The translations under genes were made by a program, and so were the position numbers. From IMG/VR virus record IMGVR_UViG_2778261163_000002, positions 1 through 14,290 of that record: a stretch of DNA of 14,290 nucleotides; one strand, written 5' to 3'. This document shows, piece after piece, positions 3,842 through 11,764 of this stretch (position 1 is the first letter of the stretch; each line of letters opens with the position of its first letter). Below the pieces are notes generated by a model. That model ran no database searches. It was not told the DNA's origin and was given only the letters and a program-made list of their open reading frames with translations. Source of the stretch: a virus (taxonomy: Duplodnaviria > Heunggongvirae > Uroviricota > Caudoviricetes).

Positions 3842-4528
3842 ATGACCCCAATAAAAATATTTATGACTATTGCTGATTTCAAACGGCCTAAATTGGAGCT
3901 CCCAAACGGGGCAAACAAACTACTACTGCACTCTTGCTGTGCTCCATGTTCCGGTGAAGTGATGGAGGCGCTTCAGGCCTCGGGAATCGACTACACCATC
4001 TTTTTCTACAACCCGAACATTCATCCTCAGAAAGAGTATTTAATTCGTAAGGATGAAAATATTCGCTTTGCTGAACAACACGGCGTGCCGTTTATCGATG
4101 CTGATTACGACACCGACAACTGGTTTGAACGTGCCAAAGGAATGGAATGGGAGCCTGAGAGGGGGATCCGTTGTACCATGTGTTTTGACATGCGTTTTGA
4201 GCGGACAGCGTTGTACGCTGCTGAAAATGGTTTCAGTGTGATCAGCAGTTCACTGGGCATTTCACGCTGGAAAAATATGCAGCAGGTTAACGAGTGTGGG
4301 CGGCGAGCTGTTGCGCATTATCCGGGTATGGTGTACTGGGATTATAACTGGCGCAAGCAGGGCGGCTCGTCCCGTATGATTGAAATCAGCAAGCGCGAAA
4401 AATTCTATCAGCAGGAATATTGTGGCTGTGTGTATTCTCTGCGCGATACCAATCTACACCGCAAATCTCAGGGACGCCCTCTTATCAAAATTGGCCAACT
4501 CCACTACGGAAAAGAAGAGAAGGAGTGA
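3842..4528 (+). CDS. queH: epoxyqueuosine reductase QueH homolog (DUF208 family)
   Basis: 228-aa ORF with HSCCAPCS near the N-terminus, YNPNIHP, RCxxCF and a C-terminal YCGCVYS motif, recalled as hallmarks of the Fe-S, B12-independent QueH family; start could alternatively be the ATG at 3863. Confidence 0.7.
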
Positions 4529-4765
4529 TTTTATGGATCACCTTTCTGATTGATTTCATATTGGCGAGGTGACGTGAGTTAAGTAGAATGGCTGCGGGTG
4601 CTTGAGGCTATCTGTCTCAGGCATGAACACTGAAAGGCAGATAGAGAAAAGCCCCAGTTAACATTACGCGTCCGGCAAGACGCTTAACATTAATCTGAGG
4701 CTCAATCTATGAACGGCAAATCTAGGTTAGCCTCTTACGTGCCGAAAGGCAAGGAGAAGCAGGCT

Positions 4766-4921
4766 ATGAAGCAGCAAAAGGCGATGTTAATCGCCCTGAT
4801 CGTCATCTGTTTAACCGTCATTGTGACGGCACTGGTAACGAGGAAAGACCTCTGCGAGGTACGAATCCGAACCGGCCAGACGGAGGTCGCTGTCTTCACA
4901 GTCTACGAACCTGAGGAGTAA
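4766..4921 (+). CDS. hokD: Hok/Gef-family type I toxin, HokD (RelF)-like, 51 aa
   Basis: MKQQKAMLIALIVICLTVIVTALVTRKDLCEVRIRTGQTEVAVFTVYEPEE matches the recalled HokD sequence almost exactly; AAGGAG 9 nt upstream; the ORF continues in frame upstream to 4709, which is probably not biological. Confidence 0.8.
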   Translation: MKQQKAMLIALIVICLTVIVTALVTRKDLCEVRIRTGQTEVAVFTVYEPEE

Positions 4922-4991
4922 GAGACTTGGCGAGGGAGAAATCCCTCGCCGCCTCTGATGTGTCAGGCATCCTCAACGCACCCGCACTTAA

Positions 4992-5010
4992 CCCGCTTCG
5001 GCGTTTTTTC
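4992..5010 (+). terminator. rho-independent terminator after hok
   Basis: CCCGC-TTCG-GCG stem-loop followed by TTTTTT. Confidence 0.55.
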
Positions 5011-5064
5011 CGTTGATTAACTCTAGTTATTAGAGAACCGAACTTTTATTGATGGGGCAGGGAG

Positions 5065-5457
5065 ATGAAGAAACTTGTTTTAGTCGCAGGTGTAATGATT
5101 GCAACAGTAATGTTGGGAGGGTGTGCAGCAAAGGTCGATCCAGCGTTGAAAGCAGAAGCAATGAAGCCACTAACATGTAATGATGAAAAGCAATGTGACT
5201 TTTATTGGAAACGAGCGCAATTCTGGTTGGCTAATAATTCCTCATGGAAAATTCAAACGGCGACAGACACGCTAATTTCCACTTATAATCCCTCTCCAAA
5301 TAGTCCATTCCTCGCTTATCAAGTGAGTAAAATGCCAAATGAAGATGGATCCTCAAGAATTTTCATCAAGCCTTTTTGCGATAATATGTTTGGCTGTCAA
5401 CCAAACCCCTATCAGGCAGTTGTTTCCTTTAAAAACTTCGTTAAAACAGGGCAGTAG
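5065..5457 (+). CDS. putative lipoprotein (130 aa), four conserved-looking Cys, unknown function
   Basis: Signal peptide with lipobox LGG-C (MKKLVLVAGVMIATVMLGGC); GGGAG before the ATG; AT-rich codon usage compared with flanking genes; terminators on both sides. Confidence 0.7.
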   Translation: MKKLVLVAGVMIATVMLGGCAAKVDPALKAEAMKPLTCNDEKQCDFYWKRAQFWLANNSSWKIQTATDTLISTYNPSPNSPFLAYQVSKMPNEDGSSRIFIKPFCDNMFGCQPNPYQAVVSFKNFVKTGQ

Positions 5458-5655
5458 TGTATAGCTTGGACGATAAATTATTAGTGAAAACGCCGTAAAC
5501 CCTCACCCAATGTGGACTAAGCCTATCAAACATGACTGTGATGATTAGTCCGTAGTTGTTGCCTATGAAATCTGGATTGAGTCAGGGTTTAATCCAATAA
5601 TTATTCTATCGTTCCTTTACAAGTCCGGTATATTACTTTCAGTTTGTTTTAGCAT

Positions 5656-5681
5656 ACCCGCTTCGGCGGGTTTTGTTTTTT
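5656..5681 (+). terminator. rho-independent terminator
   Basis: CCCGC-TTCG-GCGGG stem-loop followed by TTTTGTTTTTT. Confidence 0.65.
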
Positions 5682-5753
5682 CCTGGCATTCTGGTTTACA
5701 ATTCGCACGCCAGCCTGAACAACTGGCACCTGCTGCGCCAGCAGAGACAACCG

Positions 5754-6032
5754 ATGGCGCACGATACCAAATTACACAATTCTAATGATTCTGCCGTCTT
5801 TGCCAGCAGGCGCGGACGGCGTTTTCACGTATTCAAATCAGACTGGTTCCAGCATCCTCCATGCACTGAAGAGCAGGCGGAATGGATAATTCAGTGTTAC
5901 CGCAGGCGCGGATACGAGGTTAAGAAAGCCCTCAGCCTCGATTATCGTCACTGGATAATCTATGTCAGGCTCCCTTATTCCGAACGCCCACCGCGCCCAT
6001 CCCGCACATACCAGCAACGGATCTGGAGGTAA
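5754..6032 (+). CDS. hypothetical small protein (92 aa from internal ATG), position equivalent to rem in Qin
   Basis: ORF 5673..6032; the upstream part overlaps the terminator, so an internal start is assumed; its stop TAA at 6030 overlaps the GGAGG of the next gene. Start and reality uncertain. Confidence 0.35.
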   Translation: MAHDTKLHNSNDSAVFASRRGRRFHVFKSDWFQHPPCTEEQAEWIIQCYRRRGYEVKKALSLDYRHWIIYVRLPYSERPPRPSRTYQQRIWR

Positions 6033-7089: not shown

Positions 7090-7455
7090 ATGACTGAACG
7101 CATAGAATTTGTTTTGCCTTACCCGCCGACGGTGAATACCTACTGGCGACGTCATGGCAATACGTATTTCATCTCGGAGGCCGGAAAGCGTTATCGCCAT
7201 GATGTGGCGCTAATTGTTCGCCAGCAGCGGTTGAAATTAAACCTGTCCGGAAGGCTGGCGATAAAGATTATTGCAGAGCCACCGGATAAGCGCCGTCGTG
7301 ACCTGGACAATATCCTGAAAGCACCACTGGATGCGCTGACGCATGCCGGACTACTCATAGATGACGAGCAGTTTGATGAAATCAATATTGTGCGCGGTCA
7401 GCTCGTTCCTGGTGGGCGGCTGGGGATAAAAATCACAGAACTGGAGTGCGCATGA
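7090..7455 (+). CDS. rusA: RusA Holliday-junction resolvase
   Basis: 121-aa protein with the RRRDLDN motif and overall similarity to recalled RusA; typical nin-region position upstream of Q. Confidence 0.85.
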   Translation: MTERIEFVLPYPPTVNTYWRRHGNTYFISEAGKRYRHDVALIVRQQRLKLNLSGRLAIKIIAEPPDKRRRDLDNILKAPLDALTHAGLLIDDEQFDEINIVRGQLVPGGRLGIKITELECA

Positions 7456-8141
7456 ATAACCAGTATTTACAGTTTGTGCGTGAGCAGCTCATTATCGCCA
7501 CCGCTGATTTGAGTGGGGCAACAAAAGGTCAGCTTGAAGCCTGGCAGGAGAATGCCATGTTCGATACAGGGCGTTACAGGCGTAAAAAAATCCGGTACCG
7601 AGATGAAGTGACCGGAAAAATGATTACGCGGGATAATCCACCAATCCCGGGGAAACAATCGCTGGCGAAGGGGACGTCAATTCCTCTGGTCAGTCCGGTT
7701 GAGTTTTCGACATCATCGTGGCGGCGGGCTGTTCTGTCTCTTGAAGAACATCATAAAGCCTGGTTGTTGTGGTGTTACAGCGGGAGTATTTGTTGGGAAT
7801 ATCAGATCGCGATAACACAGTGGGCGTGGAATGAATTTAATACTCAATCCGGTACCAGAAAAATTGCAGGGAAAACGCAGGAACGCCTGAAAAAATTAAT
7901 CTGGCTGGCGGCGCAGGCATTAAAAGCAGAACTTTTTGGTGGGGAAGGTTATGAATACCAGGAGCTGGCATTACTGGCGGGAGTGACAACTAAAAACTGG
8001 TCCAAAACATTTACTCGTCACTGGGTTGCAATGAAACACATTTTTCACCGACTTGATAGTGAGGCTTTATTGTTTGTAATGAGAACACGTTCAAAACAAA
8101 AGGCGGCATTTTCAAAGCAAAGTGTTGCAAAAGTAGATTGA
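7452..8141 (+). CDS. late-gene antiterminator Q-like protein (QuuQ-type), 229 aa
   Basis: Start ATG overlaps the rusA stop (ATGA); located directly upstream of a promoter/terminator pair, the tRNAs and the lysis genes; no lambda-Q zinc-finger motif, so the call is mainly positional. Confidence 0.55.
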   Translation: MNNQYLQFVREQLIIATADLSGATKGQLEAWQENAMFDTGRYRRKKIRYRDEVTGKMITRDNPPIPGKQSLAKGTSIPLVSPVEFSTSSWRRAVLSLEEHHKAWLLWCYSGSICWEYQIAITQWAWNEFNTQSGTRKIAGKTQERLKKLIWLAAQALKAELFGGEGYEYQELALLAGVTTKNWSKTFTRHWVAMKHIFHRLDSEALLFVMRTRSKQKAAFSKQSVAKVD

Positions 8142-8335: not shown

Positions 8336-8411
8336 GGCCCTTTAGCTCAGTGGTGAGAGCGAGCGACTCATAATCGCCAGGTCGCTGGTTCAAATCCAGC
8401 AAGGGCCACCA
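8336..8411 (+). tRNA. tRNA with anticodon CAT, closest to tRNA-Ile2 (lysidine, ileX/ileZ-like); Met not excluded
   Basis: Cloverleaf folded by hand: acceptor GGCCCTT/AAGGGCC, D arm GCTC/GAGC, anticodon loop CTCATAA, T loop TTCAAAT, encoded CCA; close to recalled E. coli ileX. Confidence 0.8.
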
Positions 8412-8412
8412 G

Positions 8413-8489
8413 CCGCCACTAGCTCATCAGGAAAGAGCGTCAACCCTTTAAGTTGAGTGTGCGAGGTTCGAGTCCCCGATGGCGGTCCA
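8413..8489 (+). tRNA. tRNA-like gene with aberrant features, anticodon loop CCTTTAA (UUU, Lys-like); possible pseudo-tRNA
   Basis: D arm GCTC/GAGC, anticodon stem TCAAC/GTTGA, T loop TTCGAGT, encoded CCA; but C at position 33 instead of the invariant U, a mismatch in the T stem and a mismatch at acceptor pair 7-66. Confidence 0.5.
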
Positions 8490-8491
8490 GT

Positions 8492-8567
<76 letters not shown>

Positions 8568-8570
8568 TAT

Positions 8571-8645
<75 letters not shown>

Positions 8646-10594: not shown

Positions 10595-10888
10595 TTATTG
10601 TGAGCAATACACACGCGCTTCCAGTGGAGTATAAATGCCTAAAGTAATAAAACCGAGAAATCCATTTACGAATGTTTGCTGGGTTTCTGTTTTAACAACA
10701 TTTTCTGCGCCGCCACAAATTTTGGCTGCATCAACAGTTTTCTCCTGTCCAATTCCCGAAACGAAGAAATGATGGGTGATGGTTTCCTTTGGTGTTACTG
10801 CTGTCGGTTTGTTTCCAACAGTAAACGTCTGTTGAGCACATCCTGTAATAAGCATTGCCAGAGCGGCAGAAAACAACATTTTTTTCAT
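10595..10888 (-). CDS. bor: Bor lipoprotein (serum-resistance, Iss family)
   Basis: 97 aa from MKKML...ITGCAQQTFTV...LEARVYCSQ, near-identical to recalled lambda Bor; start taken at the internal ATG (10888), preceded by AGGA. Confidence 0.85.
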   Translation of the reverse strand: MKKMLFSAALAMLITGCAQQTFTVGNKPTAVTPKETITHHFFVSGIGQEKTVDAAKICGGAENVVKTETQQTFVNGFLGFITLGIYTPLEARVYCSQ

Positions 10889-11191: not shown

Positions 11192-11413
11192 GTTGAACCT
11201 CCTTAATTGATGTTATTCGAGTGATGAAGGCATTCTGTCCTTCTATAGTGTCCAGTAAATCAAACAGGAAACTTGTCCAACGTGTTGGACAAGCCTCTCC
11301 ATTAGTGAGTTGTATTGATCACAACTCTACAAAGAATTCATTACTGGGTAGATGAAAATAGTTTCACTATGAATGGAGGAGGCTATGTCGGTGGCTTCTT
11401 CATTGGAGTACAT

Positions 11414-11764
11414 ATGCCCCCACGAATCCCACGCGCCTGCCGTAAGCGTGGATGTGCAGGTACAACCACAGACAGTTCTGGTTACTGCGATAAACATCGT
11501 GGCGAAGGATGGGTACAGCATCAACGCGGACTGAGCCGCCACCAGCGTGGCTATGGCTCGAAATGGGATGCCATACGTGCGCGCATACTGAAGCGTGATA
11601 ATCATCTGTGTCAGAACTGCCTGCGCAATGGGAGAGCCGTTGAAGCCAGAACTGTGGACCACATCATTCCGAAAGCTCATGGTGGCACGGATGCAGACAG
11701 TAACCTGCAGAGTCTGTGCTGGCCCTGTCATAAAGCAAAAACAGCGCGCGAACGCATCAATTGA
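11414..11764 (+). CDS. HNH endonuclease (packaging-associated)
   Basis: Cys/His motif CQNCL...VDHIIPKAHGG...NLQSLCWPCHKAK; GGAG 5 nt before the ATG at 11414; the ORF is open upstream to 11315 (alternative ATG at 11369); located just upstream of the terminase genes as in HK97-like phages. Confidence 0.75.
   Translation: MPPRIPRACRKRGCAGTTTDSSGYCDKHRGEGWVQHQRGLSRHQRGYGSKWDAIRARILKRDNHLCQNCLRNGRAVEARTVDHIIPKAHGGTDADSNLQSLCWPCHKAKTARERIN

Follow-up and report, generated by a model that had tools for sequence, protein, structure and literature searches.

The segment at positions 5004-5655 (plus strand) of the window analysed here, a 14,290-nucleotide stretch of the virus record IMGVR_UViG_2778261163_000002 (Caudoviricetes), is with high confidence a horizontally acquired gene cassette, or moron, that carries one conserved lipoprotein precursor gene. 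The encoded protein belongs to a large family without homology to any protein of known function, and the kind of add-on gene that it represents is ordinary for prophages.

A gene cassette inserted at the hok terminator

The cassette measures 652 bp between two 13-bp repeat cores (665 bp for the insert together with one repeat). Alignment with phage Evi, which lacks the insert, revealed the empty site with a single intact terminator, and in Evi and two other phages the flanks are joined within ~104 bp. The left neighbour of the cassette is a hokD-type type I toxin gene of 51 aa (4766-4921, plus strand; Pfam HOK_GEF, E 6.4e-22; phrog_251, E 7.9e-32) with its hok/sok regulatory leader (4596-4771, plus strand; Rfam RF01794, 111.9 bits, E 2.9e-25, model positions 1-157 of 157). 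An earlier note on this DNA had already placed hok just upstream of the lipoprotein gene, and the RefSeq annotation of strain 042 has hokD in the same place.

The same note described the gene as bracketed by two terminators, which holds for the right side only. The right terminator (5656-5681, plus strand), an ACCCGC-UUCG-GCGGGU stem-loop with a T-run, is strong and intact, having six pairs (five of them G-C), a loop of four and a folding energy of -13.1 kcal/mol (z -3.1). The only terminator at the empty site of Evi is identical to it, and the right copy represents the original hok intrinsic terminator that now ends the cassette. The left copy of the terminator core (4991-5010, plus strand), ACCCGCTTCGGCG followed by TTTTTTC, is degenerate: it reads ACCCGCTTCGGCG^TTTTTTCC and lacks, in the alignment, two G's of the 3' arm that both the right copy and the empty site possess. 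This copy folds at -4.5 to -5.5 kcal/mol with z about 0 and forms no stable hairpin, against -12.8 to -15.3 kcal/mol for its counterparts in Pantoea, Enterobacter and Evi; a terminator scan missed it and picked up the intact element in Evi. All four E. coli alleles share the broken form, as do the IMG/VR loci of the E. coli type. This form is identical by descent in all of these copies, and its apparent conservation is no sign of selection for read-through.

The point of entry into the lambdoid prophage lay within the hok terminator, and the insertion left the crippled core copy on the left and the intact terminator on the right. It is a clean case of moron movement by recombination within a shared terminator hairpin, with a crippled duplicate left behind.

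The composition of the segment sets it apart from its surroundings. Its GC content is 39.0% compared to 48.8% for the window, and every other 652-bp stretch of the window is richer in GC. The coding sequence has 40.2% GC and a GC3 of 0.37, and the comparison of GC content and codon usage with the neighbouring genes (GC3 0.45-0.69) bore out the AT-rich codon usage noticed earlier, the exceptions being bor (10595-10888, minus strand; GC3 0.32) and the cI-like repressor gene. Likewise, the roughly 200 bp of AT-rich non-coding sequence described after the gene correspond to a 3' tail of 198 bp with 36.9% GC (5458-5655, plus strand), in which indels distinguish the alleles, among them a 69-bp deletion and one further deletion. 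We considered this tail as a possible second gene or RNA element and rejected it: it contains no ORF and no Rfam match, its fold z-scores are unremarkable (+0.75 on the plus strand and -1.87 on the minus strand), and large deletions separate the alleles. The tail also showed no similarity to the downstream genes of relatives, including the second lipoprotein genes of Pantoea and of the IMG/VR viral contig L078. Short ORFs overlapping the lipoprotein gene or its borders (5030-5176 and 5231-5356 on the minus strand, 5049-5180 and 5339-5464 on the plus strand) were left without support.

Among 5426 complete E. coli genomes, 255 carry the cassette and 4178 carry the flank. All cassette copies examined sit after hokD, and the gene order hokD - lipoprotein gene - DUF968 - rusA - Q was observed in five of five annotated E. 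coli or phage loci inspected; at one further locus, in strain 503440, IS1203 lies between hokD and the lipoprotein gene and separates the gene from its leader. In the window, the gene is located in the N-antiterminated nin region with no receptor-binding gene adjoining. A tblastn search against 50,697 phage records matched two induced E. coli prophages only. Thus, the earlier assignment as an independently expressed moron is upheld in its second half by the presence or absence of the segment among collinear phages, its distinct composition, its downstream intrinsic terminator and the differing positions of the homologues in other prophages; independent expression is discussed below.

A predicted outer-membrane lipoprotein

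The lipoprotein precursor gene (5065-5457, plus strand) encodes 130 aa (WP_000737636.1), and the lipobox reported earlier for a protein of this length was recovered. Residues 1-19 form a signal peptide of the n-h-c type that ends in LGG immediately before Cys20 (codon 5122-5124), and the lipobox sequence, MKKLVLVAGVMIATVMLGG followed by C, fits the pattern [LVI][ASTVIG][GAS]C. Judging from these sequence rules, the protein would leave the cytoplasm through Sec, receive its lipid at Cys20 and be processed by signal peptidase II. With alanine rather than aspartate at residue +2, and hence no Lol avoidance signal, it would be sorted to the outer membrane by the Lol system. We hold the prediction of a lipoprotein as firmly as that of the cassette itself.

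The four cysteines counted previously are those of the mature part (C38, C44, C105 and C111), making five in total with Cys20. They form two CX5C pairs, are conserved in the relatives, and would stabilize the mature domain of ~110 aa through two disulfides. The AlphaFold2 model (pLDDT 84; residues 30-130 mostly above 90) has an alpha/beta two-layer fold in the order helix, four to five strands, helix.

The gene is real and under purifying selection (dN/dS 0.11-0.26). Among E. coli alleles, which differ by up to 10% at synonymous sites, dN/dS is 0.12-0.26, and it is 0.11 in the comparison with Enterobacter; between E. coli and other genera, at 63-85% protein identity, synonymous sites are saturated.

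Homology search placed the protein in phrog_16082, matched over the full length (E 2.6e-84, positions 1-130 of 130) and without functional annotation, and no homology to a protein of known function was found. A total of 1141 cluster representatives at 50% identity match with E <= 1e-3, and 532 with E <= 1e-10. A lipobox, in most cases LAG or LSG, is present in 124 of the 147 best-matching representatives, with aspartate never at +2 and alanine there in 97; exactly four further cysteines are present in 106, and C-terminal extensions are fused in 22. A Pfam scan of 34 diverse members identified no domain but PDZ, which occurred in six, all of them fused members. Scanning species-representative genomes with alignment A3 found no relative.

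Pfam returned no family for the protein at E <= 0.1 except a chance C4 match, the NCBIfam scan was uninformative, PADLOC matched no defence family, and the PDB sequence profile search gave chance matches only. A literature search by accession numbers and topic found no paper on the protein. Foldseek against the PDB and BFVD produced nothing at E < 1e-3. The nearest fold match was to Flpp3/DUF3568 of Francisella and the N-terminal helix-grip domain of BamC, with 13% sequence identity and a Foldseek E of only 1e-2, and Pfam DUF3568 itself did not match. Because eukaryotic KA1 domains score as well as Flpp3 and BamC, this similarity is at the level of the fold and says little about function.

Transcription of the lipoprotein gene

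A textbook moron carries its own promoter. In the cassette, by contrast, a scan for sigma-70-like promoters found none at 5004-5064, and no copy examined has an intact upstream hairpin, so that the gene may instead depend on the hok promoter or on antiterminated transcription. The leader (5011-5064, plus strand) aligns with those of the Pantoea and Enterobacter homologues and is conserved with them. It comprises the palindrome CTCTAGTTATTAGAG at 5021-5035 and a G-rich Shine-Dalgarno region at 5054-5064. In place of the E. coli palindrome, the relatives have TGnTAGGAT, TGgTAAAAT or TGgTATGAT, an extended -10-like element at -38/-37 that is absent from the E. coli version. A weak promoter missed by consensus scans may nevertheless be present, for example at TATTAG (5028-5033), which matches the consensus at four of six positions. 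A sigma-E-type promoter was also considered by eye and rejected, as GAACTT at 5040-5045 has no matching -10 and is not conserved in the relatives.

With the left hairpin broken and the -10-like element of the relatives lost, the independent expression proposed earlier is not supported; the E. coli version would be expressed by read-through and probably has no promoter of its own, a reading that we hold with middling confidence from the sequence. In a lysogen, the gene would be transcribed by read-through from the hok promoter; the site TTGGCG-17-TAGAAT (4561-4589, plus strand; 9 of 12 matches), just upstream of the hok/sok leader, is a candidate source of such transcription into the cassette. 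During lytic growth, transcription would come from the antiterminated early operon. In both cases it would end at 5656-5681. Read-through would also give a longer hok mRNA; the 3' end of this mRNA is important for its regulation, and the extension could be deleterious. Recombination within a terminator may in this way switch a moron from independent expression to riding a neighbouring transcript.

Genomic contexts of the relatives and possible functions

The relatives were found in 12 other lineages, in phage-only contexts and at positions quite different from that in the window; like the E. coli cassette, they end in terminators. Many are associated with tail genes. The Enterobacter homologue lies between the tape-measure gene and gpM, the homologue in L085 between gpM and gpL, and that of Bordetella between a DUF1833 gene and a gpJ-like gene. 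A metagenomic member (L020) is inside a tail module, a PDZ-fused member adjoins the tape-measure gene, and in L086 the order is tape measure, a 114-aa ORF, the lipoprotein gene and an integrase gene. The Pantoea gene is in a tail region beside Arc and antirepressor genes, and the Phytobacter gene in a prophage remnant beside gpM. Others are close to regulatory genes: the Yersinia homologue lies between ParDE and the SieB and repressor genes, the L083 homologue overlaps an HTH_3 repressor gene by 4 bp, and the L087 homologue is at the start of the early region. Homologues 76-79% identical were present on the IMG/VR viral contigs L078 and L080/L081, which were read over the leaders and the immediate downstream sequence.

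Because the relatives occur only in prophages, within tail modules or beside or overlapping a repressor gene, we consider superinfection exclusion the most likely role, although as a best guess drawn from genomic context it is a tentative one. An envelope protein made in the lysogen or on infection would bind a component of the host envelope, and this binding would block the adsorption or DNA entry of incoming phages. The association of contexts fits any lysogenic-conversion function, exclusion being one.

Next in order, the protein could serve host fitness or virulence in the manner of Bor, Iss or TraT, altering the outer membrane for serum resistance or stress tolerance. The gene resembles bor, elsewhere in the window, in being a low-GC moron for a lipoprotein predicted to be outer-membrane-sorted; many E. 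coli strains of avian-pathogenic or clinical origin have it; and Flpp3, the nearest fold match of the protein, is described as a virulence determinant (PDB entry 2mu4). We nevertheless regard such a role as unlikely, given that the sequence matched neither Bor nor any Pfam family, that the phages carrying the family include those of bacteria living in the environment or on plants (Pantoea, Phytobacter, Bordetella genomosp. 9, metagenomes), to which resistance to serum is of no relevance, and that the preferred position in tail modules is typical of exclusion genes.

Action during lytic growth seems less probable again. Here, antiterminated early or late transcripts would be the source of the protein, which would either mask receptors, both on the dying cell and on its debris, in the manner of Llp of T5, or modulate the envelope for lysis. 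Llp is described as made shortly after T5 infection (10.64898/2026.03.26.714494). The lack of a detected promoter in the window, the location in the nin region and the many relatives co-oriented inside the late tail operon would all be in keeping with this timing. However, the positionally conserved extended -10-like element of the relatives and their flanking hairpins suggest expression independent of the operon, and the repressor overlap in L083 and the SieB/repressor adjacency in Yersinia imply expression in the lysogen.

We give little credence to an immunity or inhibitor lipoprotein directed against an enzyme or toxin acting in the periplasm (a tail-associated peptidoglycan hydrolase, colicin, type VI effector or protease), with no receptor masking involved. 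A compact, disulfide-stabilized domain predicted to face the periplasm would suit this task, as would the C-terminal extensions, including PDZ domains, which bind peptide C-termini, and the proximity of family members to tape-measure and NlpC/P60 tail genes. Still, fold searches of the PDB showed no similarity to known lysozyme or effector inhibitors, and there is no conserved partner gene, the downstream neighbours varying by lineage. Finally, a decaying hitch-hiker, a promoterless gene stranded in E. coli prophages and no longer functional, is very improbable: the degraded upstream hairpin and -10-like element, the deletions accumulating in the 3' tail, the frameshifted or truncated copies (P0012, P0006 and P0013) and the IS1203 insertion in strain 503440 would be consistent with it, but dN/dS is low among the E. 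coli alleles, and the ORF is intact in nearly all 255 carrier genomes with all cysteines kept.

Returning to superinfection exclusion, we extend guarded credence to the chain as a whole, from cassette and lipoprotein through read-through to the exclusion role. A more far-reaching proposal, which we regard as speculative and rather doubtful, is that the family constitutes a new widespread class of outer-membrane exclusion lipoproteins, in which a helix-grip domain with two disulfides, in some members fused to PDZ, would bind a conserved envelope component. The E. coli member would then have lost its promoter and hairpin and be expressed from a hok mRNA extended at its 3' end, which would link the transcript of a type I toxin with a gene for exclusion. 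If the exclusion role is true, a structurally distinct and much larger class would be added to the few receptor-masking lipoproteins (Cor, Llp and Rtp45), more than a thousand prophage proteins of Enterobacterales and Burkholderiales now called 'hypothetical' would receive a name, and a new envelope target on which phages depend would be indicated. If the function is another, this is an accessory lipoprotein gene of the ordinary kind, carried by ~5% of E. coli genomes.

Comparison with known systems

Similarly to Llp of T5, Cor of phi80, N15, HK022 and T1, and Rtp45 of Rtp, the known exclusion lipoproteins (PMC12685063), the protein described here is phage-encoded and predicted to be an outer-membrane-sorted lipoprotein with disulfide-forming cysteines, and members of its family are often encoded beside tail-tip or tail-assembly genes. 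Unlike them, it has a mature part of ~110 aa, about twice the ~60 aa of those proteins, folded as an alpha/beta two-layer domain with two CX5C pairs; PMC12685063 gives Rtp45 as ~6 kDa and calls Llp small. The resemblance is thus one of type, and the homology to Cor or Llp that the earlier note had suggested does not hold up: the match to the Cor profile phrog_1119 (E 0.0071, residues 1-44 against profile positions 1-39 of 78) covers mainly the signal peptide, and PDB sequence and fold searches gave no match to Llp or Rtp45. Exclusion by the present protein would resemble theirs without any kinship between the proteins.

As with the morons of lambdoid phages such as bor and lom of lambda (PMC3594210), the cassette is an extra gene between conserved neighbours that is variably present in collinear phages, has a GC content below that of its surroundings, ends in an intrinsic terminator and occupies varied genome positions across phages. 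With Bor of lambda and the serum-resistance lipoprotein Iss it shares the character of a small prophage-encoded lipoprotein moron of low GC3, but differs from them in its unrelated sequence, without a Pfam Bor match, and in its position and strand in the prophage.

A more distant parallel is Ltp of the Streptococcus thermophilus phage TP-J34, a surface-exposed protein of another architecture whose host is Gram-positive; no similarity to the E. coli lipoprotein was detected. Ltp is a lipoprotein expressed from the prophage for superinfection exclusion (PMC3952083), and the exclusion strategy thus recurs in unrelated families.

A foreign cassette in the hok terminator

A foreign cassette has inserted in the hok terminator of this E. 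coli lambdoid prophage and holds a gene under constraint, whose product is a lipoprotein precursor from a large phage-borne family. The genes of the window run, from left to right, cI-like repressor, replication genes, DUF977, QueH homologue, hok, lipoprotein gene, DUF968, RusA, Q, four tRNA genes, holin, DUF1327, lysozyme, Rz/Rz1, bor (on the opposite strand), HNH endonuclease and terminase genes. The order around the lipoprotein gene is the same in RefSeq genomes such as that of E. coli 042, where the ORF is annotated as hypothetical protein WP_000737636.1.

Using megablast with positions 4950-5720 as the query against phage records, we found the full region in two phages and the flanks approximately 104 bp apart in three (Evi, 813R8 and 640R1). 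The empty site of phage Evi, aligned with both junctions, contains one intact terminator, AACCCGCTTCGGCGGGTTTTGTTTTTTCC. In the window, the core of this terminator is found at both 4991-5003 and 5656-5668, a direct repeat that encloses a 652-bp insert (5004-5655), which is the lowest-GC stretch of its length in the whole window (39.0% vs 48.8%). Together with the many phage positions of its homologues (see below), the empty site and the low GC content establish the cassette as a real moron, as the earlier note had claimed.

The same note had placed the gene between two terminators, of which only the right one stands. The intrinsic terminator at 5656-5681 is strong (-13.1 kcal/mol, z -3.1). The left copy (4991-5010, ACCCGCTTCGGCG-TTTTTTCC), taken for the hok terminator, has the same core with a 3' arm that is two G's short; it folds at -4.5 to -5.5 kcal/mol with z about 0, no better than shuffled sequence, and was not detected in a terminator scan of the window. 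In Pantoea and Enterobacter, an intact hairpin built on this core, ACCCGCTTCGGCGGG or AGCCCGCTTCGGTGGG (-12.8 and -15.3 kcal/mol), lies 5' of the homologue, and the leader of ~60 nt that follows it aligns with 5011-5064. Given this hairpin and leader, the left copy is best read as the putative 5' hairpin of the cassette itself, or as part 5' hairpin and part hok terminator; recombination would have occurred inside hairpin sequence common to donor and target.

Among 5426 complete E. coli genomes, 255 carry the cassette and 4178 the flanks, and every annotated locus inspected has the order hokD, lipoprotein gene, DUF968, RusA, Q. Since all four alleles, up to 5% divergent, and nearly all E. coli-type IMG/VR loci share the same degenerate left copy (the right copy being intact), one ancestral insertion accounts for all of these copies. 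A further hairpin (4928-4951, +; GGCGAGGGAGAAATCCCTCGCC), very stable and lacking a T-run, closely follows the stop codon of hok and has been kept on the 5' side of the insertion. For 4920-5012 the folding energy is -34.1 kcal/mol (z -3.3), and this hairpin is probably part of the 3' structure of the hok mRNA.

The lipoprotein gene is AT-rich and constrained

The ORF at 5065-5457 (+) encodes 130 amino acids with a typical signal peptide and, as had been noted, a lipobox (LGG|C). Its cysteines number five, Cys20 of the lipobox and four others (C38, C44, C105 and C111). These four form two CX5C pairs that do not vary among close relatives and hardly do so among distant ones. The suspected compositional difference from the neighbours is likewise borne out: the coding sequence has 40.2% GC and a GC3 of 0.37 versus 0.45-0.69 for neighbouring genes, with only bor and the repressor gene as AT-rich. 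Comparisons between E. coli alleles give dN/dS ratios of 0.12-0.26, and comparison with the Enterobacter homologue gives 0.11; with other genera, protein identity is still 63-85% while synonymous sites are saturated. The AT-rich non-coding sequence of about 200 bp described past the gene measures 198 bp at 36.9% GC. It contains no ORF, Rfam match or significant structure and has no similarity to the sequence 3' of the gene in relatives; deletions of ~70 bp in it distinguish alleles, and we treat it as unconstrained.

Neighbouring genes of the prophage

The QueH (epoxyqueuosine reductase) homologue of the nin region (3842-4528, +; Pfam QueH, E 1.1e-65), a phage-carried tRNA-modification gene, adjoins hok; it is WP_000150294.1, annotated by RefSeq in other prophages. 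Directly past the right terminator lies a 92-aa ORF (5754-6032, +; phrog_1212, unknown function; 'hypothetical protein' in RefSeq), also kept at the empty site; its stop codon and the start region of the DUF968/HNH-like gene overlap. Between Q and the lysis genes, tRNA genes for Met-CAT, Lys-TTT, Thr-TGT and Gly-TCC form a tight group of four (8336-8645, +), with a low Rfam score for tRNA-Lys (37.7 bits). At this position, E. coli 042 carries tRNA-Ile and tRNA-Arg instead. A second low-GC lipoprotein moron, called bor from its translation, lies 3' of Rz/Rz1 (10595-10888, -; 40.8% GC) and has a GC3 of 0.32, below that of the lipoprotein gene. The ORF at 11315-11764 (+), with an HNH-endonuclease-like motif read from its translation, directly precedes the small and large terminase genes, as is usual where cos packaging is HNH-assisted.

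A large family without a name

A word-indexed search returned only 16 close relatives (E. coli, Enterobacter, Pantoea, Phytobacter and metagenomes), and an exhaustive profile search 1141 cluster representatives (50% identity) at E <= 1e-3, 532 of them at E <= 1e-10. A lipobox is present in 124 of the 147 best representatives, and the residue after the lipid-bearing cysteine is never Asp and is Ala in 97; exactly four further cysteines are present in 106, and 22 are at least 190 aa long. A C-terminal PDZ domain, past a Pro- or Ala-rich linker, was found in 6 of 34 members scanned, which had no convincing match to any other Pfam family. Such fusions suggest that the N-terminal domain works together with peptide C-terminus binding in the periplasm. 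Listed PDZ-bearing members are P0034, P0103, P0129, P0141, P0148, P0160 and P0202, with one locus at L022 7001-7702.

The 130-aa protein itself is a full-length member of phrog_16082, a family without annotated function, and has no match in Pfam, NCBIfam or PADLOC. Its 90%-identity cluster (1137 members) also lists many sequence-unrelated 70-aa Hok proteins, probably a clustering artefact via a bridging sequence that inflates the member count. An AlphaFold2 model built from a 12-sequence alignment (pLDDT 84; residues 30-130 mostly >90) has, in order, a short helix, a strand, a long helix, four strands and a C-terminal helix. Foldseek searches of the PDB and BFVD gave nothing below E 1e-2. At the level of fold, the predicted structure resembles helix-grip/TBP-like two-layer domains, including two bacterial lipoproteins, and this indicates no function. 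No homology to Cor or Llp, whose receptor masking the earlier note had mentioned as a common role of prophage lipoproteins, was found: the Cor profile matches the signal peptide only, and Llp and Rtp45, whose complexes are deposited in the PDB (PMC12685063), are absent among the structure matches.

Relatives sit at many positions in phage genomes

Every retrievable homologue context is a prophage or phage contig. In tail modules, the gene lies between the tape-measure gene and gpM (Enterobacter), between gpM and gpL (locus L085), between a DUF1833 gene and a gpJ-like gene (Bordetella genomosp. 9), next to the tape-measure gene (a PDZ-fused member), after the tape-measure gene and before the integrase (L086), or elsewhere inside the module (L020). 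The Pantoea homologue is in a tail region beside Arc and an antirepressor, and that of Phytobacter beside gpM in a remnant. In immunity or early regions, it lies between ParDE and SieB plus repressor (Yersinia), shares 4 bp with an HTH_3 repressor gene (L083) or lies at the start of an early operon (L087). Homologues are usually flanked by hairpins on both sides, and this, with the many positions, is moron behaviour.

Immediately 3' of the homologue, the Pantoea prophage (L079, 7332-7679) and locus L078 (about 7386-7780) have a second lipoprotein gene, joined by a stop/start overlap, TGATATG. These second genes are unrelated to one another and neither matches Pfam, and the loci resemble cassettes of two lipoprotein genes; in the E. 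coli version, the DNA at this place is all non-coding.

Expression of the E. coli version

Relatives have a -10-like hexamer at a fixed -38/-37 from the start codon, often with TG before it (TGaTAGGAT, TGtTAGGAT, TGgTAAAAT, TGgTATGAT, TATCAT). At this place E. coli has a palindrome, CTCTAGTTATTAGAG (5021-5035), with no hexamer containing the critical A2 and T6, and a consensus scan of 5004-5064 found no promoter. With the -10-like element absent and the upstream hairpin broken, read-through is the simplest reading, and the independent expression previously claimed is doubtful for the E. coli version. In a lysogen, transcripts from a candidate hok promoter (4561-4589, promoter scan) would cross 4991-5010, enter the gene and end at 5656-5681; in lytic growth, the antiterminated early transcript would also span it. 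The copies have the broken left hairpin by common descent, and a weak promoter of the gene's own, missed by the scan, is conceivable.

The Enterobacter and Pantoea leaders (L009 and L079) have TAGGATTAGTCCTA and TAGGATTACTCCTA at the palindrome site. A 5-bp hairpin is possible in all three leaders, with differing sequences, and could be an operator or RNA element, few sequences having been compared. In E. coli strain 503440 (L013, 1690-2985), IS1203 lies between leader and start codon, right after GATGGGGCAG, and separates the gene from hok and any upstream promoter, making this strain a natural test case for its expression.

Proposed function

Lipoprotein morons are a well-known kind, among which this is a new, uncharacterised family; nothing in the cassette results would surprise a phage biologist. 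The earlier description was largely correct, apart from the crippled left copy, the doubtful independent expression and the missing Cor/Llp homology. A testable prediction follows from where this large, unnamed family is placed in phage genomes. By established sequence rules (lipobox, +2 rule, DsbA substrates), the product would be a lipidated, periplasm-facing outer-membrane protein with two disulfides.

Exclusion and conversion genes are commonly found in tail modules and beside repressors. From the gene context in relatives, we tentatively propose that the lipoprotein binds an envelope component and blocks incoming phages. A Bor-like role in fitness or virulence seems unlikely, and one restricted to lytic growth somewhat more so. 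The inhibitor or immunity role that the PDZ fusions suggest is improbable, and a decaying gene, opposed by the dN/dS values, is scarcely credible. In the proposed superinfection block, the protein would act like Cor, Llp or Rtp45: it falls outside the families of all three, whereas its proposed mode of action is similar to theirs.
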